Source: a phage
DNA length: 64,000 nt
Direction: 5' to 3' (one strand)
Sequence record: PZ452598.1
Shown here: positions 12,787 through 59,089 of the stretch, piece after piece
Layout: every line of letters starts with the position of its first letter
How positions within the stretch are numbered: position 1 is the first letter of the stretch
Notes under the pieces: generated by a model
What the model saw: the letters and a program-made list of their open reading frames with translations, nothing else
Told to the model about the DNA's origin: nothing
Database searches by the model: none
Made by a program: the position numbers and the translations under genes

Positions 12787-13257
12787 TTAATCATGTTTCC
12801 ACACCCCATCGGTATTTGACCAAAGTCGCTGATTATCTGATCCTCGCCACAGCTTTTTGGTCGGAAGATTTTTCTCATACTTCCCATCAATAATAACATC
12901 AACATATTTAAGCATTTCTAGTTGTTTAATATCTTCAAACTTATATCCTGTCCACAACCAGATATCTTTCTCCGGAAATCTTGCTTTAACCCAAGAAACT
13001 AAATTTGAAATCTCTTCTCGGTTCTGTGGATAAAGTGGGTCACCGCCGGTTAAGGTAAGGCCTTGGATATACGATTTGCTTAAATGGGACGCAAGTTCTT
13101 TAACGGTATTCATAGTGAATAACTGTCCGTTACGAGCATTCCAAGTACTACGATTATAACAACCTTCGCATTTATGCAAACATCCAGTGACGAAGAGAAC
13201 GACCCTACATCCAGGGCCGTTAACGAAATCGCATGGATAAATTCTATCATAATTCAT
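12787..13257 (-). CDS. nrdG: anaerobic ribonucleotide reductase activating protein NrdG (156 aa from MNYDRIYPCDFVNGPG)
   Basis: radical-SAM style cysteine cluster CxxxCxxC (GCLHKCEGCYN); host NrdG-like N-terminus; ORF track 184-aa version is an upstream extension. Confidence 0.85.
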   Translation of the reverse strand: MNYDRIYPCDFVNGPGCRVVLFVTGCLHKCEGCYNRSTWNARNGQLFTMNTVKELASHLSKSYIQGLTLTGGDPLYPQNREEISNLVSWVKARFPEKDIWLWTGYKFEDIKQLEMLKYVDVIIDGKYEKNLPTKKLWRGSDNQRLWSNTDGVWKHD

Positions 13258-13879
13258 CTTTATATTTCCAAGTATATCCCTTATGAATAGATTGAATTCC
13301 TTTGCAACATTTATAAACAGCAGAATGAAAAAATCCTGCATTTCTTATTTCAGTTGCTCCAGTTAGTTCTATTGTATTTCCGTCTGGTGAATAGCCAATA
13401 ACCGTTTTGGTGTTAAAGCGATTTCTAGAACTATTTTTGATATGCTCTTTATGATTAGTAGACAAAGTTCTTCCTGTTAGCCCATCAGATATCCTTTTTC
13501 CAAAATCATCAGGAAGAGTTACTTTAGACCTAGCTATGCTCATTAGCTTCTTAGTTTTATCGCTTCTTTTTGCGCCACGCTGATTTTCAAATTTCTTAGC
13601 TTTTGCATACGCGTATTGTGAAGAAGTAACTTTTCTATGCTTACTATTACTCATTATCCAATATGCATCATACATCTTTCCACCATATATTTTAGCCAAT
13701 AAATGGTGAGCAGTATAGTGGGCCTTATAAGTTAAAAATACTAAGTTGTCTAAATCATCTGAACCACCCATACTTCTTGGAATTATATGATGAAGTTCAT
13801 ACCCGGCTTTAGTTTGACGGGGCTTAGATGGGTGTTCAGCAGAATTAACTAGATTTGAATAGATTCTGTCATAATTCAT
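13247..13879 (-). CDS. mobC: HNH homing endonuclease (210 aa; mobC-like) inserted between nrdD and nrdG
   Basis: HNH motif ELHHIIPRSMGGSDDLDNLVFLTYKAHYTAH; C-terminal NUMOD-like repeat; overlaps nrdD stop and nrdG start. Confidence 0.65.
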   Translation of the reverse strand: MNYDRIYSNLVNSAEHPSKPRQTKAGYELHHIIPRSMGGSDDLDNLVFLTYKAHYTAHHLLAKIYGGKMYDAYWIMSNSKHRKVTSSQYAYAKAKKFENQRGAKRSDKTKKLMSIARSKVTLPDDFGKRISDGLTGRTLSTNHKEHIKNSSRNRFNTKTVIGYSPDGNTIELTGATEIRNAGFFHSAVYKCCKGIQSIHKGYTWKYKDEL

Positions 13880-15155
13880 TGGTGCTTAACCCTATGCATG
13901 ATTTCTTTATTTTTACCGAGATTAAATCCGCGTTCGTTCGGATTTCCCAAATAACCACATGTTCTTCTTATGGTATTCATCTTTTTAGGATCAGTTTCTC
14001 CACAAATAGAACAAACAAATCCGTTTTCAGTAGGAGTCATTTCATGGGTACTTCCACATGTAAAACATTTATCTACTGGCATATTAACACCAAAATAATC
14101 TAAATGCTGTGCAGCATAATCCCACACGGCCTCAAGACCTTTTAAGTTATTTTTCATATCAGGAAGTTCAACATAAGAAATGTGACCACCTGTCGCAATG
14201 AAATGATATGGCGCTTCACGAGAAATCTTTTCAAACGGAGTAATATTTTCTTCTACTGAAACATGGAAACTGTTAGTGTACCAGCCTTTATCGGTAACAT
14301 CTTTTACGCTTCCATATTTTTCTGTATCGAGTTTACAGAAGCGATAACACAGGTTTTCAGCAGGAGTCGAATATAAACTAAAAGCAAATCCGGTTCTTTC
14401 AGTCCACTGTTTAAGATGAGCATTCATTTTAGTTAAAATTTCTCGTCCAATATCACGACCGACAAGAATATTCAATTCGTGAATACCAATGTATCCTAAA
14501 GACACTGAACTTCTACCGTTTTTAAATAACTCAATTATGTCGTCATCAGGTTTAAGACGAACCCCGAATGCACCTTCTTGGTAAAGAATAGGAGCAACAG
14601 TAGCTTTAACTCCTTTTAAGGAACTAATTCTACACATCAAAGCTTCAAAACATAAATCCATTCGTTCATTAAATAGCTCAACAAATTTCTGTTCATTGAA
14701 CTGTGTTCCAATATAAGAATCTAACGCGATGCGAGGAAGATTCAGTGTTACAACACCAAGATTATTGCGTCCATCAAGAATTTCATTGCCAGTCGAATCT
14801 TTCCATACGCTCAAGAAACTACGGCAACCCATCGGAGAAACAGGAACAGATGAACCAGTGATAGCTTTATTGTTCTTAGCTGAAATAATATCAGGATACA
14901 TCCTTTTGCTTGCGCACTCTAGAGCAAGCTGTTTAATATCATAGTTCGGATCGTCTTTATAAAGATTAACACCTTCTTCAACGAACATAACAAGCTTAGG
15001 GAAAATAGGAGTTATCCCATCACGACCAAGACCTTTAATACGATTTTTCAGAATTGCTTTCTGAATCATTCGTTCAGTCCAGTCAGTTCCCGTACCAAAT
15101 GTAATTGTTACAAAAGGAGTCTGTCCGTTTGAACTGAATAACGTGTTCACTTCAT
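13876..15155 (-). CDS. nrdD: anaerobic ribonucleoside-triphosphate reductase NrdD, exon 2 (C-terminal 425 codons, glycyl radical domain)
   Basis: ORF lacks ATG; C-terminal glycyl radical motif RRTCGYLG and CxxC...C zinc site (CFTCGS...CSICG); joins in frame to exon 1 across intron giving 605 aa. Confidence 0.85.
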
Positions 15156-16188
15156 CAATGTGTTCAGTAGAGTTCGCTACTTCTCTACCCGTTTATATGA
15201 AACAATGTAATTTGGATAATTGTCATCTAAACACAAATCTTTAATACGACTTGGGTGGAGTTTTAAATCTTTAGCAGCATCCACAAATGATTTATAGATA
15301 TTGTCATTTATTTTAACATATTCTGGGACGGGATGAATTGTTATTTTTATATCTATAACATTTGGATGATTACTAACCTGTTCTTCAGAGCATTTAAGAA
15401 ATTTTGCAGCTGATTTAAAACTTCTAAATTTATTTCCGGATTTTAAAGCTATAGAAACAGTCTTTTTAGCCGTTCTACTACCAATATTATTTTTAACATG
15501 AGCTTCACTTCTACTATTATTTTTATAATGCTCAATCAATTTCTCTCGTATCTTATCTTTATGTTTTAAAGATAAGATTTTACCTTTATGGGCATTACTA
15601 AGTTTTTGCTTATGTTCTTCTGAATCCGGATATTTGTTAAATTTATATCCACCTATAGATTTATTAAGAATAAATTCGTTATTAAAATATTTCCTAATAA
15701 GCATTTCTTCATGTTTAAGGGCCGATTCATAAGAATCAAAAACTTGAAGAATTATCCACTTAGCTTTATAATCTTTAAGCTTTTCTTTAACAAGCTTAGA
15801 TGACGAATTGTATTCTTTCCAATTTGTATCTTTACCATATATAGTTTTGAATTTTTTAAAACCTATATAAAAAGACTTATCAGGAAATCTTACCATATAG
15901 GTAAATGCTACAGAATTGGCAATTTTTAAGCTTTTTCTTAATTTCCATTTCATCGTTTCACCTCGTATTCATATTTATACGAGGATAAACAGCTGCATGT
16001 CACCATGCAGTTCAGACTATATCTTCAACTCTTAGAGTTGTCTGCCGTTTCGGGTCGCTTGACCCTACTCCCTTACATTCATCAGGGATAGTCGTTGGGC
16101 ATTTACAGCTACTGCTGATTTAGCAACGGATTGTCTCAGTGAGAGTTTCCCGTTTTAGGCAGATTTTACATGAGCTTGACTTACGTTA
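15156..16188 (-). mobile_element. group I self-splicing intron (1033 nt) in nrdD carrying an endonuclease ORF
   Basis: exon 1 frame hits stop 2 codons past inferred 5' splice site; P1 pairing exon UAUGAGU with intron GCUCAUG; structured GC-rich core 15960-16188; boundaries inferred from pairing plus frame/length, uncertain by a few nt. Confidence 0.75.
15177..15953 (-). CDS. I-TevII: intron-encoded GIY-YIG-type homing endonuclease (258 aa; I-TevII-like)
   Basis: ORF inside intron 3' of catalytic core; N-terminal FTYMVRFPDKSFYIG motif; basic C-terminal DNA-binding region. Confidence 0.7.
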   Translation of the reverse strand: MKWKLRKSLKIANSVAFTYMVRFPDKSFYIGFKKFKTIYGKDTNWKEYNSSSKLVKEKLKDYKAKWIILQVFDSYESALKHEEMLIRKYFNNEFILNKSIGGYKFNKYPDSEEHKQKLSNAHKGKILSLKHKDKIREKLIEHYKNNSRSEAHVKNNIGSRTAKKTVSIALKSGNKFRSFKSAAKFLKCSEEQVSNHPNVIDIKITIHPVPEYVKINDNIYKSFVDAAKDLKLHPSRIKDLCLDDNYPNYIVSYKRVEK

Positions 16189-16726
16189 ACTCATAAGCTT
16201 GGAATGCATCGTATACGTCTTTTTCTGTTTTAGATTGAGCATAATTCAACGCATCAGCGATTTGCCATTTTTCTGCATCCTCAATATGTTTTGCATAGGT
16301 GCGTTTAACATAAGGAGAAAGTACTTTATCTACATTCGCAAAAGTCGTTCCGCCGTATTGGTGAGAAGCAACTTGCGCAGTAATTTGTGCCATAATTGCA
16401 GTAGCAACTCCAATTGATTTAGGAGTTTCAATCTGCGCATTACCAAGCTTAAATCCGTTTTCAAGCATTCCTTTTAAATCTACTAAACAGCAATTAGTAA
16501 ATGGAAGAGCAGGGGAATAATCAATATCATGCACGTGAATAATTCCGCTTTCATGCGCTTTCATAATAAAAGACGGGACCATATTTTTGGCAATGTGTTT
16601 AGACACAATACCAGCCATAAGGTCCCGTTGAGTTGGAAAAACACGAGAATCTTTATTAGCATTCTCGTTTAAAAGGTCTTTATTAGTTTTATGAATTAAT
16701 CCTTCAATTTCTTTTTCAATTGTCAT
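16189..16726 (-). CDS. nrdD: anaerobic ribonucleoside-triphosphate reductase NrdD, exon 1 (N-terminal 179 codons plus 1 nt)
   Basis: starts MTIEKEIEGLIHKTNKDLL; ATG overlaps gene 49 stop; exon ends ...DAFQAYE. Confidence 0.85.
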
Positions 16727-17196
16727 TTTAAACTCTTTCTAAGCTGCTTCTTGAATGAAGCTATTAATTGTGTTTTGGTGTCAGATTCATTATATTCAAA
16801 TCCTCTTTGAAGCATCTCGGCCATCATTTCCTCTTTTCCTAAACGAGAAAATTCCTTTGATTTATCTCCAACAAAGTTAGGGTGAATATTATTTTGGGTG
16901 TAATCGGATTTTAAATAAGTAAGTAAATTTTCTAACCATTCAAGATAATCAACACCTTGTCCCTTTAAGCCAGAACGATTAAATTTATGCTTCATTTGAC
17001 CTTCTGCAGCATTGCATAGATTACAAAGCAATCCACGCACCTTTCCTGCTTTTGGTCCATTTAATTCATGGTCATGGTCGAGGTGATTAGCTTGAACATC
17101 AGGATTTAGTTCTCGTTGGCAAATTAAGCATTTACCGTTTTGTGCATCATAAAATTTCTGTTTTTCTTCTTTGTATAATTTGCCAGTCAATAACAT
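16723..17196 (-). CDS. 49: endonuclease VII (Holliday junction resolvase, 157 aa)
   Basis: zinc-binding cysteines CLICQ...CNLCN and HLDHDHE motif; size 157 aa. Confidence 0.85.
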   Translation of the reverse strand: MLLTGKLYKEEKQKFYDAQNGKCLICQRELNPDVQANHLDHDHELNGPKAGKVRGLLCNLCNAAEGQMKHKFNRSGLKGQGVDYLEWLENLLTYLKSDYTQNNIHPNFVGDKSKEFSRLGKEEMMAEMLQRGFEYNESDTKTQLIASFKKQLRKSLK

Positions 17197-17237
17197 AATA
17201 AACCCTTACCTTAAATAGATAAGGGTATTTATTATTT

Positions 17238-17723
17238 TCAAGTATTGTAAAACATTTGATGCAATCGCTTATATTGCTGAATCATTCGGTCAGAAAAAGA
17301 AATTTGAGTTTCAAGCCATTCAATGTACTCTGCGGCAGCTTGCATTAAATTTCCTTCATAGCCATCGTTATTTTCTTGTGCAGCTAATTTAGCTAATGCG
17401 TATGAAATACGTTCACCTTGAAAATCGGCTTTAGGCTTCTGAACAACTTGATTAGTTCGCTCTACAACTTCTTCAATTTCGCCATTTTCTACTGATTCAG
17501 TATTCCACAAACACCAATACGTAATTGGCTTATCGTAGATGTTAATAATCTTTCCATCAGAAAGTTCAATTTCAATAATTCCAGTGTCAGGCTCTATATC
17601 ATCTTCACATTCTTTTACAAGTTCACGAACTTTAAAGACAGTACCTGCACTAAGTTCCGGCCAGTAATTACACAGCCCTGTATCAGCACGATTAATTCTA
17701 AACCATTTATCTACTGTAATCAT
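17238..17723 (-). CDS. hypothetical protein, 161 aa from MITVDKWF; positional candidate for Lon protease inhibitor Pin
   Basis: position between gene 49 and nrdC; identity by position/size only. Confidence 0.45.
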   Translation of the reverse strand: MITVDKWFRINRADTGLCNYWPELSAGTVFKVRELVKECEDDIEPDTGIIEIELSDGKIINIYDKPITYWCLWNTESVENGEIEEVVERTNQVVQKPKADFQGERISYALAKLAAQENNDGYEGNLMQAAAEYIEWLETQISFSDRMIQQYKRLHQMFYNT

Positions 17724-24227: not shown

Positions 24228-24253
24228 TTTGTGTTCCTCCGTAGTTGATAGTT

Positions 24254-24287
24254 GTATAGTACCACAGCTCAAACGGAAAGTAAACCG
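24254..24287 (-). promoter_or_regulatory. early promoter GTTTAC-N18-TACTAT with conserved leader CAACTATCAACTAC
   Basis: plus 24280-24285 gtaaac, 24256-24261 atagta. Confidence 0.5.
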
Positions 24288-36668: not shown

Positions 36669-36743
36669 TGGTATCCCGCCCTGGGATCGAACCAGGACCG
36701 CAAACTTAGAAGGATCGTATGCTATCCATTACACCAGCGGGAC
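36669..36743 (-). tRNA. tRNA-Arg (anticodon UCU), CCA encoded
   Basis: manual fold: acceptor GTCCCGC/GCGGGAT, T-arm CCTGG-TTCGATC-CCAGG, anticodon loop CTTCTAA. Confidence 0.8.
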
Positions 36744-36748
36744 GTAAT

Positions 36749-37414
36749 TTAAAATTTCATTTTTCGACCTTTAAACCATCCTTCTGGAATTGGGTCAGTT
36801 TTCTTAATACGTTTAGAAACTTTTTCATCTAATGAATGAATCCACATCATACCGAATTGGGAATTCTTTTCACCTTTCTGGTGATTATTTTTGGCGTGAG
36901 ATTCTTTCATTTTATTAATAGTTTCAGGAGTATGATGCTTATTTAGAAATCTGCTATTATTTAAAAATTTTTCCCTGTATTCAGGAGTTGACCACAAACG
37001 TTTAAATACATTTGAACCAATTTTACGATATTTTTCTTGAAGTAAAATATCATTTTCAAAACGTGACTTAAACGATTTAGCTCCTTTTAAGCTAGCATCT
37101 TTCTTCTGGTTTAGCATTCCAGGAATATTTACATGATCCCATCCACCTTCACCGCCAAGTTTTAAATTATACACATCTGGTCTATTTAAAAACTCTTCTG
37201 TGACAATATTTTTCTCGGCTTCAAGCATAGATTCTTTATCGTCAAAATACTCTAATATTTCTTTAGAAAAATTTTCTATACCATATTTATCTTGGGCTCT
37301 TTTTAATAATTTACCAGAACCCATATATCCATCATCTAAATTTTCGGTAGAATGCACACCAATATAAATTTTATTATTAATTTTATTTGTTATTTTATAA
37401 GTGTAATAGAACAT
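36749..37414 (-). CDS. segB: GIY-YIG homing endonuclease (221 aa; segB-like) inside tRNA cluster
   Basis: N-terminal YYTYKITNKINNKIYIGVH GIY-YIG motif; located between tRNA-Arg and tRNA-Ile. Confidence 0.7.
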   Translation of the reverse strand: MFYYTYKITNKINNKIYIGVHSTENLDDGYMGSGKLLKRAQDKYGIENFSKEILEYFDDKESMLEAEKNIVTEEFLNRPDVYNLKLGGEGGWDHVNIPGMLNQKKDASLKGAKSFKSRFENDILLQEKYRKIGSNVFKRLWSTPEYREKFLNNSRFLNKHHTPETINKMKESHAKNNHQKGEKNSQFGMMWIHSLDEKVSKRIKKTDPIPEGWFKGRKMKF

Positions 37415-37455
37415 AAATATCTCCTATTTCTAAGAGTATTTATGTTCTCAAAATA

Positions 37456-37529
37456 TGACCCAGACCAGATTTGAACTGGTAACCTTTCCCTTATGAGGGG
37501 ACTGCTGCTAACCATTGAGCTACAGGGCC
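37456..37529 (-). tRNA. tRNA-Ile (anticodon CAU type), no CCA encoded
   Basis: manual fold; anticodon loop CTCATAA; 1 nt from tRNA-Thr (dimeric precursor arrangement). Confidence 0.7.
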
Positions 37530-37530
37530 T

Positions 37531-37606
37531 TGGTGCTGATTGACGGAATCGAACCGCCGACATCCTCATTACAAGTGAGGTGCTCTACCTACTGAGCTAA
37601 ATCAGC
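37531..37606 (-). tRNA. tRNA-Thr (anticodon UGU), CCA encoded
   Basis: manual fold: acceptor GCTGATT, D-arm GCTC-AGTAGGTA-GAGC, anticodon loop CTTGTAA, T-arm GGCGG-TTCGATT-CCGTC. Confidence 0.85.
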
Positions 37607-37613
37607 AAAATTA

Positions 37614-37700
37614 CGGAGGCGATAGGATTTGAACCTATGAGTCGCCGGAGCGACTGCCGGTTTTCAAGACCGGTGCATTAAACCACTCTGCCACGCCTCC
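37614..37700 (-). tRNA. tRNA-Ser (anticodon UGA), long variable arm
   Basis: manual fold: acceptor GGAGGCG, anticodon stem-loop CCGGT-CTTGAAA-ACCGG, extended variable arm, T-arm ATAGG-TTCAAAT-CCTAT. Confidence 0.85.
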
Positions 37701-37702
37701 AG

Positions 37703-37776
37703 TCTCCATACAAGGATTTGAACCTTGGACCTCCTGATCCCAAATCAGGCGCTCTACCAAACTGAGCTACACGGAG
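37703..37776 (-). tRNA. tRNA-Pro (anticodon UGG)
   Basis: manual fold: anticodon stem-loop CCTGA-TTTGGGA-TCAGG; T-arm CAAGG-TTCAAAT-CCTTG. Confidence 0.85.
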
Positions 37777-37786
37777 TAAATTAAAT

Positions 37787-37860
<74 letters not shown>

Positions 37861-37865
37861 AAATT

Positions 37866-37952
37866 TGGTGCGAGAAGTGGGACTCGAACCCACAAGGAAA
37901 TCATTCCGCAGCATTTTAAGTGCTGTGCCTTTACCAATTTGACCATTCTCGC
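37866..37952 (-). tRNA. tRNA-Leu (anticodon UAA), long variable arm, CCA encoded
   Basis: manual fold: acceptor GCGAGAA/TTCTCGC, anticodon loop CTTAAAA, T-arm GTGGG-TTCGAGT-CCCAC. Confidence 0.85.
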
Positions 37953-37953
37953 G

Positions 37954-38026
37954 CTGGGAATAAAGGACTCGAACCTTTGCATCTAGCAGTCAAAGTGCTA
38001 TGCCTTACCAACTTGGCTAATTCCCA
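37954..38026 (-). tRNA. tRNA-Gln (anticodon UUG)
   Basis: manual fold: acceptor TGGGAAT/ATTCCCA, anticodon stem-loop TAGCA-CTTTGAC-TGCTA, T-arm AAGGT-TCGAGTC-CTTTA. Confidence 0.85.
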
Positions 38027-43471: not shown

Positions 43472-45182
43472 TAACCTTAATTGGTTTGTCGGTGTTGTTG
43501 AAGATAGAATGGACCCATTAAAATTAGGTCGTGTTCGTGTTCGTGTGGTTGGTCTGCATCCACCTCAAAGAGCACAAGGTGATGTAATGGGTATTCCAAC
43601 TGAAAAATTACCATGGATGTCAGTTATTCAACCTATAACTTCTGCAGCAATGTCTGGAATTGGAGGTTCTGTTACTGGACCAGTAGAAGGAACTAGAGTT
43701 TATGGTCATTTTTTAGACAAATGGAAAACTAATGGAATTGTCCTTGGCACGTATGGTGGAATAGTTCGCGAAAAACCGAATAGACTTGAAGGATTTTCTG
43801 ACCCAACTGGGCAGTATCCTAGACGTTTAGGAAATGATACTAACGTACTAAACCAAGGTGGAGAAGTAGGATATGATTCGTCTTCTAACGTTATCCAAGA
43901 TAGTAACTTAGACACCGCAATAAATCCCGATGATAGACCGCTATCAGAGATTCCAACCGATGATAATCCAAATATGTCAATGGCTGAAATGCTTCGCCGT
44001 GATGAAGGATTAAGATTAAAAGTTTATTGGGATACCGAAGGATATCCGACAATTGGTATTGGTCATCTTATCATGAAGCAGCCAGTTCGTGATATGGCTC
44101 AAATTAATAAAGTTTTATCAAAACAAGTTGGTCGTGAAATTACAGGAAATCCAGGTTCTATTACAATGGAAGAGGCGACGACTTTATTTGAGCGTGATTT
44201 GGCTGATATGCAACGGGACATTAAATCACATTCTAAAGTAGGACCAGTCTGGCAAGCTGTCAACCGTTCTCGTCAAATGGCGTTAGAAAATATGGCATTT
44301 CAGATGGGTGTTGGTGGTGTAGCTAAATTTAACACAATGTTAACTGCTATGTTAGCAGGAGATTGGGAAAAAGCGTATAAAGCCGGTCGTGATTCATTGT
44401 GGTATCAACAAACAAAAGGCCGTGCATCCCGTGTTACCATGATTATTCTTACGGGGAATTTGGAATCATATGGTGTTGAAGTGAAAACCCCAGCTAGGTC
44501 TCTATCAGCAATGGCTGCTACTGTAGCTAAATCTTCTGACCCTGCTGACCCTCCTATTCCAAATGACTCGAGAATTTTATTCAAAGAACCAGTTTCTTCA
44601 TATAAAGGTGAATATCCTTATGTGCATACAATGGAAACTGAAAGCGGACATATTCAGGAATTTGATGATACCCCTGGGCAAGAACGATATAGATTAGTTC
44701 ATCCAACTGGAACTTATGAAGAAGTATCACCATCAGGAAGAAGAACAAGAAAAACTGTTGATAATTTGTATGATATAACCAATGCTGATGGTAATTTTTT
44801 GGTAGCCGGTGATAAAAAGACTAACGTCGGTGGTTCAGAAATTTATTATAACATGGATAATCGTTTACATCAAATCGATGGAAGCAATACAATATTTGTA
44901 CGTGGAGACGAAACGAAAACTGTTGAAGGTAATGGAACTATCCTAGTTAAAGGTAATGTTACTATTATAGTTGAAGGTAATGCTGACATTACAGTTAAAG
45001 GAGATGCTACCACTTTAGTTGAAGGAAATCAAACTAACACAGTAAATGGAAATCTTTCTTGGAAAGTTGCCGGGACAGTTGATTGGGATGTCGGTGGTGA
45101 TTGGACAGAAAAAATGGCATCTATGAGTTCTATTTCATCTGGTCAATACACAATTGATGGATCGAGGATTGACATTGGCTAA
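43455..45182 (+). CDS. 5: baseplate hub/cell-puncturing protein gp5 with lysozyme domain (575 aa)
   Basis: internal lysozyme domain MAEMLRRDEGLRLKVYWDTEGYPTIGIGHL paralogous to gene e; C-terminal VEGN beta-helix repeats. Confidence 0.95.
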   Translation: MEMISNNLNWFVGVVEDRMDPLKLGRVRVRVVGLHPPQRAQGDVMGIPTEKLPWMSVIQPITSAAMSGIGGSVTGPVEGTRVYGHFLDKWKTNGIVLGTYGGIVREKPNRLEGFSDPTGQYPRRLGNDTNVLNQGGEVGYDSSSNVIQDSNLDTAINPDDRPLSEIPTDDNPNMSMAEMLRRDEGLRLKVYWDTEGYPTIGIGHLIMKQPVRDMAQINKVLSKQVGREITGNPGSITMEEATTLFERDLADMQRDIKSHSKVGPVWQAVNRSRQMALENMAFQMGVGGVAKFNTMLTAMLAGDWEKAYKAGRDSLWYQQTKGRASRVTMIILTGNLESYGVEVKTPARSLSAMAATVAKSSDPADPPIPNDSRILFKEPVSSYKGEYPYVHTMETESGHIQEFDDTPGQERYRLVHPTGTYEEVSPSGRRTRKTVDNLYDITNADGNFLVAGDKKTNVGGSEIYYNMDNRLHQIDGSNTIFVRGDETKTVEGNGTILVKGNVTIIVEGNADITVKGDATTLVEGNQTNTVNGNLSWKVAGTVDWDVGGDWTEKMASMSSISSGQYTIDGSRIDIG

Positions 45183-45216
45183 TATACTTCCAATGAGCGC
45201 TGATTTAGGAGAATCC

Positions 45217-45711
45217 ATGGAAGGTTCTTCTATCGACGTCACCTTTACCGCTCAATTAGAAACAGGTGAAACGTTAGTATCTATAAATATAACTAGTTAC
45301 GAAGAAACTCCTGGGGTTTTAGTAGAAGAAAATCGCTTATATGGAACATATGAATCTGTATTTGGTTTCGGAAATGACGCGTTGAAATATCGTTTAGGCG
45401 ATGAATTTAAAACTGCTGCTTCATGGGAAGAACTTCCTACTGATTCTGATACTCAGTTGTATTTGTGGAAAGCTCCTCAAAACCTCCAGAAGACATTCAC
45501 TTACGAAGTAACATTAATATATGACTACCAAGAACAAAGTGAATCTGGGGGTTCTGGCAGTAATTCTAGGTCATCTTCTGATACTACTGAACCGACAGAT
45601 CCTCCTGCTCCAGTAAGAAAAACTCTAGTTAAAAATTATACTAAAACTATAGTTGGAAATTGGAGTCGTTGGGCTAATAAACTGAGAAAATATGCCTATG
45701 CAAGACCATAA
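45217..45711 (+). CDS. hypothetical protein gp5.1 (164 aa from MEGSSIDVTF; track start 45154 overlaps gene 5)
   Basis: AGGAG SD 5 nt before ATG at 45217. Confidence 0.55.
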   Translation: MEGSSIDVTFTAQLETGETLVSINITSYEETPGVLVEENRLYGTYESVFGFGNDALKYRLGDEFKTAASWEELPTDSDTQLYLWKAPQNLQKTFTYEVTLIYDYQEQSESGGSGSNSRSSSDTTEPTDPPAPVRKTLVKNYTKTIVGNWSRWANKLRKYAYARP

Positions 45712-46288
45712 ATATTTTTATTTGTATTCAATAACTAATAAAACAACAGAAAAAATTTATGTAGGCGTCCACAAAACTTCAAATTTGGATGATGGGTATA
45801 TGGGTTCTGGCGTTGCCATTAAAAATGCCATTAAAAAATATGGCATAGATAATTTTTATAAGCATATTATAAAATTCTTTGAATCTGAAAAAGCTATGTA
45901 TGACGCAGAGGCAGAAATAGTCACAGAGGAATTTGTTAAATCTAAGAAAACTTATAATATGAAACTAGGCGGTATCGGTGGCTTCCCAAAACATAACACA
46001 GCGGGTGCTAAAAATGGATTTTACGGTAAATCTCATTCGCGTGAAACTAGATTGAAAATTAGCATTAAATCGTCTAGAAAAAGAGGGCCTAGAGGGCCTA
46101 GAGGTAAAACTCTGAAGATGTGTGGCGCCAATAACCCAAGGTATGGCAAAATAGCCCCTAATGCTAAATCTGTTATTATCAACGGCGTTTTATATAAAAG
46201 TATTAAAATCGCAGCTAAAGCTCTTAATATAAATTATAGTACCTTAAAGGGGCGAGTTAAAGCGGGGTATTATAAATGTCAGGATTAA
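45692..46288 (+). CDS. segC: GIY-YIG homing endonuclease (about 196-198 aa; segC-like)
   Basis: [19 protein letters not shown]...[10 protein letters not shown]; about 50 percent identical by eye to segB-like ORF at 36749-37414 over N-terminal 90 aa. Confidence 0.6.
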
Positions 46289-53582: not shown

Positions 53583-55390
53583 TGAAACAAAATATTAATA
53601 TCGGTAATGTTGTAGATGATGGTACCGGTGACTACCTGCGTAAAGGTGGTATAAAAATAAATGAAAACTTTGATGAGCTTTATTATGAACTCGGTGATGG
53701 TGATGTTCCATATTCAGCCGGTGCCTGGAAAACTTATAATGCTTCATCAGGACAAACATTAACAGCAGAATGGGGAAAATCATACGCTATTAATACATCT
53801 TCTGGAAGAGTGACTATAAATCTTCCAAAGGGTACAGTTAATGATTACAACAAGGTAATTAGAGCTAGAGACGTATTTGCTACATGGAACGTCAACCCAG
53901 TTACACTAGTAGCTGCTTCCGGCGATACGATTAAAGGGTCTGCAGTACCAGTTGAAATTAATGTTCAATTCAGCGATTTAGAACTAGTGTATTGTGCCCC
54001 AGGACGTTGGGAATATGTCAAAAATAAACAAATTGACAAAATTACCAGTTCAGACATTAGTAATGTAGCTCGCAAAGAATTTTTAGTTGAAGTTAAAGGA
54101 CAAACAGACTTTTTAGATGTTTTCCGTGGAACTAGTTATAATGTAAATAACATCAGAGTAAAACATCGTGGTAACGAATTGTATTACGGCGATGTGTTTA
54201 GCGAAAACAGCGATTTTGGCTCTCCAGGCGAAAATGAAGGAGAACTGGTTCCTCTTGATGGATTTAACATTCGATTAAGACAGCCTTGTAATATTGGTGA
54301 CACTGTTCAAATTGAAACATTTATGGATGGTGTATCACAGTGGAGAAGTTCATATACAAGACGTCAAATTAGATTGTTAGATTCAAAATTAACGTCAAAA
54401 ACTTCTTTAGAAGGAAGCATTTACGTTACTGATTTATCAACAATGAAATCAATTCCATTTTCTGCTTTTGGATTAATTCCAGGAGAACCTATTAATCCTA
54501 ACTCTCTTGAGGTTCGTTTTAACGGGATTTTACAGGAATTGGCTGGCACAGTTGGAATGCCATTATTTCATTGTGTTGGTGCCGATTCAGACGATGAAGT
54601 AGAATGCTCTGTTTTAGGTGGAACTTGGGAACAATCTCATACCGATTATTCAGTTGAAACTGATGAAAACGGCATACCAGAAATTTTACATTTCGATAGA
54701 GTATTTGAGCATGGTGACATTATCAATATCACCTGGTTTAATAATGATTTGGGTACATTATTAACAAAAGATGAGATTATTGATGAAACTGATAATCTCT
54801 ATGTATCGCAAGGACCTGGAGTAGATATTTCTGGTGATGTAAATTTAACAGACTTCGATAAAATTGGTTGGCCAAATGTAGAAGCAGTTCAATCTTATCA
54901 ACGCGAATTTAATGCTGTTTCAAATATCTTTGATACGATTTATCCTATTGGAACTATATATGAAAACGCTGTTAATCCAAATAACCCTGTTACATATATG
55001 GGATTCGGCTCATGGAAATTATTTGGGCAAGGAAAAGTTTTAGTTGGATGGAATGAAGATATTTCGGACCCTAACTTTGCTCTAAATAACAACGATTTAG
55101 ATTCGGGTGGAAATCCTTCACATACCGCAGGTGGAACAGGTGGTTCTACTTCTGTTACATTGGAAAATGCTAATCTTCCTGCAACTGAAACAGATGAAGA
55201 AGTTCTAATAGTTGATGAAAATGGATCAGTCATTGTTGGTGGGTGTCAATACGATCCAGATGAATCCGGTCCAATTTACACTAAATACCGTGAAGCTAAA
55301 GCATCTACTAACTCTACTCACACTCCGCCAACATCAATAACTAACATTCAACCATATATTACAGTTTATCGTTGGATAAGGATTGCATAA
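53582..55390 (+). CDS. 10: baseplate wedge protein gp10 (602 aa)
   Basis: size and order. Confidence 0.9.
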
Positions 55391-56049
55391 TGAGTTTACT
55401 TAATAATAAAGCGGGAGTTATTTCCCGCTTAGCCGATTTTCTTGGTTTTAGACCTAAAACTGGCGACATTGATGTAATGAATCGTCAATCAGTCGGGTCA
55501 GTGACAATATCTCAATTAGCGAAAGGATTTTATGAACCAAACATAGAATCAGCTATTAATGACGTTCATAATTTTTCTATAAAAGACGTTGGCACAATTA
55601 TTACTAATAAAACTGGTGTTTCTCCTGAGGGTGTTTCTCAAACTGATTATTGGGCATTTTCTGGAACTGTAACAGACGATTCTCTTCCTCCGGGTTCTCC
55701 TATTACGGTATTAGTATTTGGTCTTCCAGTTTCAGCAACAACTGGAATGACGGCAATTGAGTTTGTTGCAAAAGTTCGCGTTGCACTACAAGAAGCTATT
55801 GCGTCATTTACTGCTATCAATTCATATAAAGACCATCCAACTGATGGTAGTAAATTAGAAGTTACTTATTTAGATAATCAAAAACATGTATTAAGCACAT
55901 ATTCTACATATGGAATAACTATTTCCCAAGAAATTATATCTGAGTCTAAGCCTGGCTATGGTACATGGAATTTATTGGGCGCACAAACTGTAACTTTAGA
56001 TAATCAGCAGACTCCTACAGTATTTTATCATTTTGAGAGAACAGCATGA
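55390..56049 (+). CDS. 11: baseplate wedge protein gp11 (219 aa from [10 protein letters not shown])
   Basis: TAATG stop/start overlap with gene 10; track start is an upstream extension. Confidence 0.85.
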
Positions 56050-57629
56050 GTAATAATACATATCAACACGTTTCTAATGAATCTCGTTATGTAAAATTTG
56101 ATCCTACCGATACGAATTTTCCACCGGAGATTACTGATGTTCAGGCTGCTATAGCAGCCATTTCTCCTGCTGGAGTAAATGGAGTTCCTGATGCATCGTC
56201 AACAACAAAGGGAATTCTATTTCTTGCCACTGAACAGGAAGTTATAGATGGAACTAATAATACCAAAGCAGTTACACCAGCAACGTTGGCAACAAGATTA
56301 TCTTATCCAAATGCAACTGAAACTGTTTACGGATTAACAAGATATTCAACCAATGATGAAGCCATTGCCGGAGTTAATAATGAATCTTCTATAACTCCAG
56401 CTAAATTTACTGTCGCCCTTAATAATGCGTTTGAAACGCGAGTTTCAACTGAATCCTCAAATGGTGTTATTAAAATTTCATCTCTACCGCAAGCATTAGC
56501 TGGTGCAGATGATACTACTGCAATGACTCCATTAAAAACACAGCAGTTAGCTATTAAATTAATTGCGCAAATTGCTCCTTCTGAAACCACAGCTACCGAA
56601 TCGGACCAAGGTGTTGTTCAATTAGCAACAGTAGCGCAGGTTCGTCAGGGAACTTTAAGAGAAGGCTATGCAATTTCTCCTTATACGTTTATGAATTCAT
56701 CTGCTACTGAAGAATATAAAGGCGTAATTAAATTAGGAACACAATCAGAAGTTAACTCGAATAATGCTTCTGTTGCGGTTACTGGCGCAACTCTTAATGG
56801 TCGTGGTTCTACGACGTCAATGAGAGGCGTAGTTAAATTAACTACAACCGCCGGTTCACAGAGTGGAGGCGATGCTTCATCAGCCTTAGCTTGGAATGCT
56901 GACGTTATCCACCAAAGAGGTGGTCAAATTATCTATGGAACACTCCGCATTGAAGACACATTTACAATAGCTAATGGTGGAGCAAATATTACGGGTACCG
57001 TCAGAATGACTGGCGGTTATATTCAAGGTAACCGCATCGTAACACAAAATGAAATTGATAGAACTATTCCTGTCGGAGCTATTATGATGTGGGCCGCTGA
57101 TAGTCTTCCTAGTGATGCTTGGCGCTTCTGCCATGGTGGAACTGTTTCAGCGTCAGATTGTCCATTATATGCTTCTAGAATTGGAACAAGATATGGCGGA
57201 AACCCATCAAATCCTGGATTGCCTGACATGCGTGGTCTTTTTGTTCGTGGTTCTGGTCGTGGTTCTCACTTAACAAATCCAAATGTTAATGGTAATGACC
57301 AATTTGGTAAACCTAGATTAGGTGTAGGTTGTACCGGTGGATATGTTGGTGAAGTACAGAAACAACAGATGTCTTATCATAAACATGCTGGCGGATTTGG
57401 TGAGCATGATGATTCTGGGGCATTCGGTAATACCCGTAGATCAAATTTTGTTGGTACACGTAAAGGACTTGACTGGGATAACCGTTCATACTTCACCAAT
57501 GACGGATATGAAATTGACCCAGAATCACAACGAAATTCCAAATATACATTAAATCGTCCTGAATTAATTGGAAATGAAACACGTCCATGGAACATTTCTT
57601 TAAACTACATAATTAAGGTAAAAGAATGA
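56046..57629 (+). CDS. 12: short tail fibre protein gp12 (527 aa)
   Basis: size and order; Gly/Thr/Ser-rich fibre sequence. Confidence 0.9.
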
Positions 57630-59089
57630 CAGATATTGTACTGAATGACTTACCATTCGTTGACGGCCCTCCTGCAGAGGGCCAGAGCCGCATTTCCTGG
57701 ATTAAAAACGGCGAAGAAATATTAGGAGCTGACACACAGTATGGAAGTGAAGGCTCAATGAATAGACCTACGGTTTCTGTACTAAGAAATGTTGAAGTTC
57801 TTGATAAAAACATTGGAATACTTAAAACATCTTTAGAAACCGCAAATAGTGATATTAAAACAATTCAGGGCATCTTAGATGTATCTGGTGATATTGAAGC
57901 TTTGGCCCAAATAGGTATCAATAAAAAGGATATTTCTGACCTCAAAACGCTAACCAGTGAACACACAGAAATATTAAATGGAACTAATAATACGGTTGAC
58001 AGTATTCTTGCCGATATTGGTCCATTTAACGCCGAGGCCAACTCTGTATACAGAACGATCAGAAATGATTTACTGTGGATAAAGCGTGAACTTGGACAAT
58101 ACACTGGTCAAGATATTAATGGTCTTCCTGTTGTAGGAAATCCTAGTAGTGGAATGAAGCATCGCATTATTAATAATACTGATGTCATCACTTCGCAGGG
58201 AATACGTTTAAGCGAATTAGAAACAAAATTTATTGAATCTGATGTAGGTTCTTTGACCATTGAAGTTGGTAATCTTCGTGAAGAGCTTGGACCGAAACCA
58301 CCATCATTTTCACAGAACGTTTATAGTCGTTTAAATGAAATTGACACTAAACAGACAACAGTTGAGTCTGACATTAGTGCTATTAAGACCTCAATAGGAT
58401 ATCCAGGAAATAATTCGATTATCACGAGTGTTAATACAAACACTGATAATATTGCATCTATTAATTTAGAGCTAAATCAAAGTGGAGGTATTAAACAGCG
58501 TTTAACCGTTATTGAAACTTCCATTGGTTCAGATGATATTCCTTCGAGTATTAAAGGTCAAATCAAAGATAATACAACTTCAATCGAATCTCTAAATGGA
58601 ATCGTCGGTGAAAACACTTCATCTGGCTTAAGAGCGAATGTTTCATGGTTAAACCAAATTGTTGGAACTGATTCTAGCGGTGGACAACCTTCTCCTCCTG
58701 GGTCTCTTTTAAACCGAGTTTCTACAATTGAAACTTCTGTTTCAGGCTTGAATAACGATGTTCAAAACCTACAAGTAGAGATTGGTAATAACAGCACAGG
58801 AATTAAAGGGCAAGTTGTAGCGTTAAATACTTTAGTAAATGGAACTAATCCAAACGGTTCAACTGTTGAAGAGCGCGGATTAACCAATTCAATAAAAGCT
58901 AACGAAACTAACATTGCATCAGTTACACAAGAAGTGAATACAGCTAAAGGCAATATATCTTCTTTACAAGGTGATGTTCAAGCTCTCCAAGAAGCCGGTT
59001 ATATTCCTGAAGCTCCAAGAGATGGGCAAGCTTACGTTCGTAAAGATGGCGAATGGGTATTGCTTTCTACCTTTTTATCACCAGCATAA
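57626..59089 (+). CDS. wac: fibritin (whisker antigen control, 487 aa)
   Basis: long segmented coiled coil; C-terminal foldon [27 protein letters not shown]. Confidence 0.95.

Follow-up and report, generated by a model that had tools for sequence, protein, structure and literature searches.

The analysed stretch of DNA (the window) comprises 64,000 nt of the phage sequence record PZ452598.1. According to the T4 reference annotation, its minus strand carries gene 49, nrdD (a CDS joined from two pieces, with a span of 2851 nt), I-TevII and mobC. The two nrdD pieces are separated by 1033 nt at positions 15156–16188 (minus strand), which correspond to T4 44815–45847 and are 100% identical to it, as are both flanking exons. 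Around this interval, a 3.2-kb region (3201 nt) shows 100% identity to bacteriophage T4, namely to AF158101.6, NC_000866.4 and a dozen further T4 records. The T4 record describes I-TevII as a 'DNA endonuclease encoded by group 1A intron in nrdD; GIY-YIG family'.

The first exon of nrdD (16189–16726, minus strand), as delimited from the open reading frames and the T4 annotation, measures 538 nt and contains 179 codons plus the first base of a split Tyr codon. Its ATG at 16726 overlaps the stop codon of gene 49, and the frame starting there comprises 181 codons and ends ...DAFQAYELT*, with the stop two codons past ...QAYE, just as a preliminary description of this DNA had read it. The encoded segment matches Pfam NRDD (1.5e-40, profile positions 1–141) and equals residues 1–179 of PDB 1H78. 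Exon 2 (13876–15155, minus strand; 1280 nt) begins with the remaining two bases of the Tyr codon, followed by 425 sense codons and the stop. The 425-codon frame lacking an ATG, to which the glycyl-radical part of the enzyme had been assigned, indeed contains the motif RRTCGYLG and matches both Pfam NRDD (2.7e-122, profile positions 146–562) and Gly_radical (9.4e-26); it equals residues 180–605 of 1H78 except for residue 580.

Excision of 15156–16188, which starts with TAACG... and ends with ...CATTG, leaves 538 + 1280 = 1818 nt, corresponding to 605 codons and a stop. The joined frame reads ...AFQAYE-Y-EVNTLFSS..., which is the join and the product length proposed beforehand, and the product aligns over positions 1–605 with the crystallised T4 NrdD (PDB 1H78, 1H79, 1H7A, 1H7B and 1HK8). 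Only at residue 580, well away from the junction, does the product depart from the crystallised chain, by a G-to-A substitution. The NRDD domain and the C-terminal glycyl-radical domain are hence found in one polypeptide, as is characteristic of a class III (anaerobic) ribonucleotide reductase. The junction was derived independently, as the T4 annotation table lacks the join coordinates; the intron length of 1033 nt was obtained from the sequence, and the deposited CDS span (2851 − 1818 = 1033) implies the same length.

Intron-less alleles define the insertion point to the base. A probe that joined 150 nt of either exon at the proposed junction was contiguous in 621 phage records, with a junction of ...TATGA(A/G)T|ATGAAGT.... 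For example, phage RB27 has a 1818-nt nrdD without interruption (...GCTTATGAAT|ATGAAGTAAAT..., i.e. TATGAAT|ATGAAGT), and both in RB27 and in ECML-134 the intron is absent at exactly the T4 insertion point. The ligated exons of the window are predicted to read ...CAAGCUUAUGAGU|AUGAAGUGAAC.... These boundaries are unique, because shifting them by one base yields GAGGATGAAG or GAGTTTGAAG, neither of which equals the intron-less GA(A/G)TATGAAG.

Together with the T4 identity and the intron-less alleles, Rfam RF00028 identifies 15156–16188 (minus strand) as a group I intron, of the subgroup IA type with P7.1 and P7.2. The covariance-model search, which the preliminary description had suggested as a check, matched 16224–15993 (minus strand) over the full model (1–253) with 105.3 bits and an E-value of 2.8e-26 in cmscan, the gathering score of RF00028 being 50; chance would not produce such a match. 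The Rfam alignment misplaces P1: it puts upstream exon bases where the true guide sequence should pair. In P1 (16169–16195, minus strand), the exon end UAUGAGU (16195–16189) forms 7 bp with the internal guide GCUCAUG (16175–16169, intron nt 14–20), placing U16189.G16175 at the 5' splice site. This pairing had already been recognised from the letters alone; all seven pairs hold in the five lineages compared below, two of them are changed on both sides, and the U.G pair is invariant in 5/5. The catalytic core (15993–16163, minus strand) comprises P3 (16163–16158/16046–16041), P4, P5, P6/P6a, P7 (16093–16089/16019–16015, GACUA/UAGUC), P7.1 (16088–16069), P7.2 (16065–16052), P8 (16040–16026) and P9 with a GUGA loop (16010–15993), all on the minus strand.

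The core was aligned across five lineages, namely the introns of T4, the JEP6/IME537 type, nepoznato/A110a, Vibrio phage F102 and Aeromonas phage TS9, and 55 proposed pairs were written out for P1, P3, P4, P5, P6, P6a, P7 (pseudoknot), P7.1, P7.2, P8 and P9. Standard pairs occupy 98.9% of the cells, and 25 of the 55 pairs are changed on both sides. When the 3' partners were slid by 1–3 columns as a control, only 1–4 pairs changed on both sides, and 0/500 shuffles reached any of the observed covariation measures. Both cmscan and covariation thus recover the core helices P3–P9 with the P3/P7 pseudoknot that mark a group I intron. The extra helices of subgroup IA are present as well, with 4/5 (P7.1) and 3/5 (P7.2) pairs changed on both sides across the five lineages; the loop L7.2, AAGC (16057–16060), is kept in all of them, its stem being free to vary. 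P7 is identical in all five lineages, and covariation speaks neither for nor against this helix. In group I introns, P7 holds the guanosine-binding site, and its invariance would fit a functional site.

The Rfam model ends at P9 (15993), more than 800 nt before the 3' splice site. A conserved 3'-terminal ribozyme domain emerged when the five lineages were compared; in T4 it measures 48 nt (15156–15203, minus strand) and consists of the short P9.1 hairpin (15203–15191), the P9.2 hairpin (15189–15166) with the TAG stop of I-TevII (15179–15177) in its loop, a tail and the terminal guanosine. P9.2 contains 7–8 bp per lineage; its sequences differ and are fully compensated, P9.0 and P9.1 are compensated in the five lineages too, and the loop motif GCGA (15173–15182 region) is conserved in all five lineages while the stem is free to vary. 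The conserved L7.2 and L9.2 loops suggest tertiary contacts that might dock the remote 3' domain on the core. The tail GAACACAUU (GAACA...) precedes the terminal G15156, which is invariant in the five lineages. Just before it, UU (15158–15157) pairs with AA of J7/9 (16011–16012, minus strand) to form P9.0, whose two pairs covary as AA/UU in T4, AU/AU in JEP6, nepoznato and F102, and AC/GU in TS9. This pairing was first described in the T4 nrdD intron itself, according to the citation of Michel, Netter, Xu & Shub 1990 in PMC11417360. By inspection, P10 is weak in T4 and amounts to just 3 bp (UGA/UCA). In group I introns, P9.0 and/or P10 position the terminal guanosine; here, the 3' splice site is set by this G and the two-pair P9.0.

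Based on these results, we consider it virtually certain that 15156–16188 is the group I intron of T4 nrdD (formerly sunY), which is mobile, splices itself and carries the I-TevII gene; no substantive evidence speaks against this. The preliminary description, whose every element was borne out and which had noted the likeness of a 605-codon product and a 1033-nt intron to the T4 case, was right about the boundaries to the nucleotide, as judged by the intron-less alleles and 1H78, and the 100% identity to T4 bears out the likeness. The intron is a textbook case, already known, and there is nothing new in the intron itself: it is one of the three classical T4 introns and has been a model for self-splicing, 3' splice-site selection and homing since the 1980s. 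Its value here is that of a positive control, in which a reader of the raw sequence obtained the exact boundaries, the guide sequence and the product length; the covariance model, the intron-less alleles, the crystallised protein and the covariation across relatives are independent tests and are all concordant. The T4 identity, the boundaries, the covarying secondary structure, the rebuilt protein, the endonuclease fold, the hairpin with its promoter box and the homing-like population pattern come from our analysis, and GTP-dependent self-splicing, the cleavage activity of I-TevII and promoter use are taken from the literature.

An intein, a group II intron and a programmed frameshift were dropped in view of in-frame stops directly after exon 1, a full group I core and exon halves lying 1033 nt apart. 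One could ask whether this group I intron is spliced at a junction one or a few bases away from the stated one, or at an alternative, proximal 3' site; its P10 has 3 bp and more than 800 nt separate its core from the 3' splice site, a layout in which competition from proximal cryptic sites is conceivable. However, P9.0 covaries and the terminal G is conserved at the position given above in all five lineages, and only this junction restores the frame and the 1H78 sequence. Since the intron-less alleles and the reading frame exclude any other junction, we assign this possibility a negligible probability.

Another explanation is that nrdD is truly split by an endonuclease cassette, with halves that are translated separately and assemble without any RNA splicing. 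In the annotation of many phage records, a 'homing endonuclease' indeed separates two 'ribonucleotide reductase' CDS, and functional split ribonucleotide reductase genes exist, such as nrdA of Aeromonas phage Aeh1, which is split by mobE (PMC2988022, PMC3653736). At the locus studied here, however, a complete and covarying group I core lies exactly between the halves, exon 2 starts with neither an ATG nor a ribosome-binding site and its first codon is split, and the crystallised T4 NrdD (1H78) is one 605-aa chain continuous across the junction. Given this core, the split codon and the undivided crystallised chain, a split gene is excluded for practical purposes, and its likelihood is minute. 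The same very low probability applies to a decayed relic, in which the ribozyme or the endonuclease would be inactive and nrdD a pseudogene in this strain. Decay does occur in the T4 genome, as the third T4 intron (in nrdB) has a deleted, inactive endonuclease (PMC1865063), and the window itself carries a 4.8-kb deletion elsewhere. Against decay, the 258-aa open reading frame and all helices are intact, and I-TevII is listed as an active endonuclease (PMC2988022, Table 1). Reference T4, for which mobility of the nrdD intron has been reported (PMC1865063), has exactly the same intron and exon sequences (100% identity), and a relic is therefore excluded.

For the T4 nrdD intron, splicing is taken to proceed as follows. 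In the pre-mRNA, the internal guide would pair with the last seven bases of exon 1 to form P1 with the U.G pair at the cut, and a free guanosine bound in P7 would attack after U16189. The terminal G15156, together with the two-pair P9.0 helix and the P9.1/P9.2 domain, would then present the 3' splice site. Ligation of the exons would create the Tyr codon (U|AU) and the mRNA for a 605-aa anaerobic ribonucleotide reductase. Guanosine-initiated self-splicing has been reported for T4 introns, as stated in PMC2988022 and in Gott, Shub & Belfort 1986, a reference listed in PMC3653736.

The intron encodes the homing endonuclease I-TevII (258 aa; 15177–15953, minus strand), with an N-terminal GIY-YIG nuclease domain and C-terminal DNA-binding modules of the NUMOD type. 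The open reading frame is looped out between P9 and P9.1, and its last nine sense codons overlap P9.1/P9.2. Its earlier placement 3' of the core was correct with respect to P1–P9, which end at 15993, but the frame does not follow the whole ribozyme, as the 48-nt domain follows and overlaps it. The GIY-YIG label, weak from sequence profiles alone, is upheld by the fold in a structure model and by motif residues, the Pfam score lying below the cut-off: SegE_GIY-YIG gave an E-value of 2.8e-4 and 21.6 bits, under the curated cut-off of 25. NUMOD1 and NUMOD3 likewise scored slightly below threshold in I-TevII. NCBIfam returned no family match for I-TevII or its JEP6 sister, and a profile of I-TevII and three relatives found no match among PDB sequences even at E 10; the JEP6-type sister, 56% identical to I-TevII, has a precomputed PF19835 match. 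The model (mean pLDDT 65.5) predicts the GIY-YIG alpha/beta fold for the nuclease domain and is built on a shallow alignment, because a word-indexed protein search gave only three related clusters. GIY-YIG enzymes have two motifs with a Tyr some 10 residues apart as well as a conserved Glu and Asn; in a four-sequence alignment, the motif residues F-T-Y19 ... F-Y29-I-G31, E82 and N97 are invariant; the strictly conserved Arg after the second GIY-YIG motif is not evident, the residue in I-TevII being Lys. Among 5.8 billion proteins, I-TevII appeared as a near-orphan in a word-indexed search, which retrieved I-TevII itself, the JEP6-type sister (56% identity) and one partial match of 31% identity as the only three related clusters.

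Directly upstream of the I-TevII frame lies a hairpin, CCUCGUAU...AUACGAGG (15961–15984, minus strand), which sequesters the Shine-Dalgarno sequence GAGG (15964–15961). Its fold has −15.6 kcal/mol with a z-score of −4.3, and 0/200 shuffles were equally stable. It contains an exact T4 late-promoter box, TATAAATA (15979–15972), and the JEP6-type intron keeps both the hairpin, with one G.U change, and the box. Hairpin and box match a published scheme (PMC2988022), in which the ribosome-binding site is hidden in early read-through transcripts, and those started at the internal promoter are devoid of the 5' arm; here, use of the promoter is inferred from the sequence. According to this scheme, the hairpin would hide the ribosome-binding site of I-TevII in early transcripts, and the late promoter within the hairpin would give rise to transcripts without the 5' arm that could be translated. 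A sigma-70 scan of 13000–17500 returned 13 sites where 16 were expected and is uninformative, since T4 late and middle promoters are outside its scope.

Upstream of the same frame (window 15951–15971), TATGAATACGAGGTGAA-ACG resembles the exon junction/homing site TATGAGTATGAAGTGAACACG. As a homing-site-like 'operator', this stretch gave 17/21 matches, equalled in 4/500 shuffles and by at least equal scores in other windows of the intron, and is not significant alone. The sequence TGAACAC.TT is shared by the 3' tail of the intron (15156–15167) and exon 2. Such junction-like flanks would fit published ideas on an operator and on invasion by the endonuclease gene (PMC2988022; Loizos et al. via PMC3984707).

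The distribution of the intron among phages bears the signature of homing. A T4-type intron was found in just 25 of about 690 phage records that contain this part of nrdD; it is always at least 99.2% identical, and the exons of its carriers differ from those of T4 by 2–7% away from the junction. The closest intron-less allele is that of ECML-134, which shows exactly seven differences from the ligated T4 exons over 300 nt, all of them silent and located at −2, +8, +11, +14, +15, +17 and +20. In the window these positions fall on 16190 and 15136–15148 (−2 and +8 to +20, the latter in five consecutive codons), and whenever a T4-type intron is present, they differ from all intron-less alleles. The G at −2 gives a G-C pair in P1, and intron-less alleles would give A.C.

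A pattern of this kind is predicted by homing with obligatory co-conversion next to the insertion site (PMC2988022), and the silent exon blocks are probably fixed co-conversion tracts. Selection, either for P1 pairing at −2 or for immunity, may be the cause instead. As for the route by which such tracts would arise, I-TevII would cut intron-less nrdD alleles near the insertion site, and repair of the double-strand break would copy the intron together with adjacent exon bases. The sporadic spread, the near-identical intron in diverged exons and the fixed block, if co-converted, are consistent with cleavage of intron-less alleles by I-TevII. The cut of I-TevII is reported to lie about 13–15 nt on the downstream side of the insertion site, a position that would be compatible with the block at +8 to +20.

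The T4 td intron with I-TevI (subgroup IA2, GIY-YIG) resides in a different host gene from the nrdD intron. Furthermore, the td reading frame is looped out of P6, in contrast to that of the nrdD intron between P9 and P9.1. The cuts of I-TevI fall 23 and 25 nt on the upstream side of its insertion site (PMC2988022), whereas the exon bases linked to the nrdD intron lie downstream (+8 to +20).

A second lineage, the JEP6/IME537 type, occupies nrdD in 44 phage records at an insertion site that is the same as that of T4 to the base. It shares with the T4-type intron the frame after P9, the ribosome-binding-site hairpin with TATAAATA, the P9.1/P9.2 domain and an identical internal guide sequence, but differs in its length of 1045 nt, a core of about 74% identity with many compensated helix changes, and a 256-aa endonuclease that is 56% identical to I-TevII of T4. 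The silent changes linked to the T4-type intron lie mainly in exon 2, and those that accompany the JEP6 type in exon 1 (−8, −11, −14, −17 and −20). Two diverged lineages, in 25 and 44 records of different T4-like phages, are thus found at one nrdD site with their silent blocks on opposite sides. It is an improbable, though conceivable, reading that the two endonucleases (56% identity) differ in the side on which they cut, or that the blocks were selected as cross-immunity between competing introns, beyond hitch-hiking co-conversion.

The JEP6-type intron, located at L004:1013–2057 in phage JEP6 and also present in IME537 (L003), figures in annotations only as a 'homing endonuclease' flanked by two separate nrdD genes. 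When seven loci were searched together with Rfam cmscan at the gathering threshold, the JEP6/IME537 introns were missed; the 1.2-kb region of JEP6 searched alone gave 70.9 bits, above the gathering score of 50. The miss is an effect of the speed filters and not an absence; scans of several loci at once can lose genuine group I introns in this way. The second lineage at the same site, regularly annotated as a pair of nrdD genes, and the fixed silent blocks next to each lineage are side observations that may be useful to curators of phage genomes.

The nrdD introns of E. coli phage nepoznato (L007), Campylobacter phage A110a (L008) and Vibrio phage F102 (L006) share with the T4 intron an IA-type core and a homologous 3' domain. 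They differ in being inserted at another nrdD site, ...SPMG|CRSFL... (the MGCRSFL segment of T4 NrdD), and in the position of the open reading frame, which lies in the P6a loop in nepoznato and F102 (an HNH enzyme in F102) and is missing from the A110a intron. Insertion sites, positions of the open reading frame and endonuclease families hence vary within one ribozyme family.

Downstream of nrdD, the window contains mobC (13247–13879, minus strand; Pfam HNH, 3.2e-6), a free-standing HNH homing endonuclease gene between nrdD and nrdG; its overlaps measure 4 nt with the nrdD stop and 11 nt with the nrdG start. Phage RB27 lacks mobC, and its nrdG directly follows nrdD. With mobC and I-TevII, the nrdD–nrdG pair therefore holds two unrelated mobile endonucleases within 3.5 kb. 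Outside the intron region, the window shows a few point differences from reference T4 and is not collinear with it, as about 4.8 kb (NC_000866.4 ~53926–58741) are gone at a junction at ~24247–24267. This deletion spans nrdC.9 to mobD.5, including the mobD homing endonuclease, and an overlap of about 21 nt at the junction suggests microhomology. The deletion junction was contiguous in 0/674 records of the phage collection (at least 80% of a 401-nt probe). Finally, eight tRNA genes were detected at 36672–38026 (minus strand) with Rfam scores of 49–75 bits; a gap of about 700 nt sets the first apart from the remaining seven and corresponds to the GIY-YIG homing endonuclease gene segB in reference T4.
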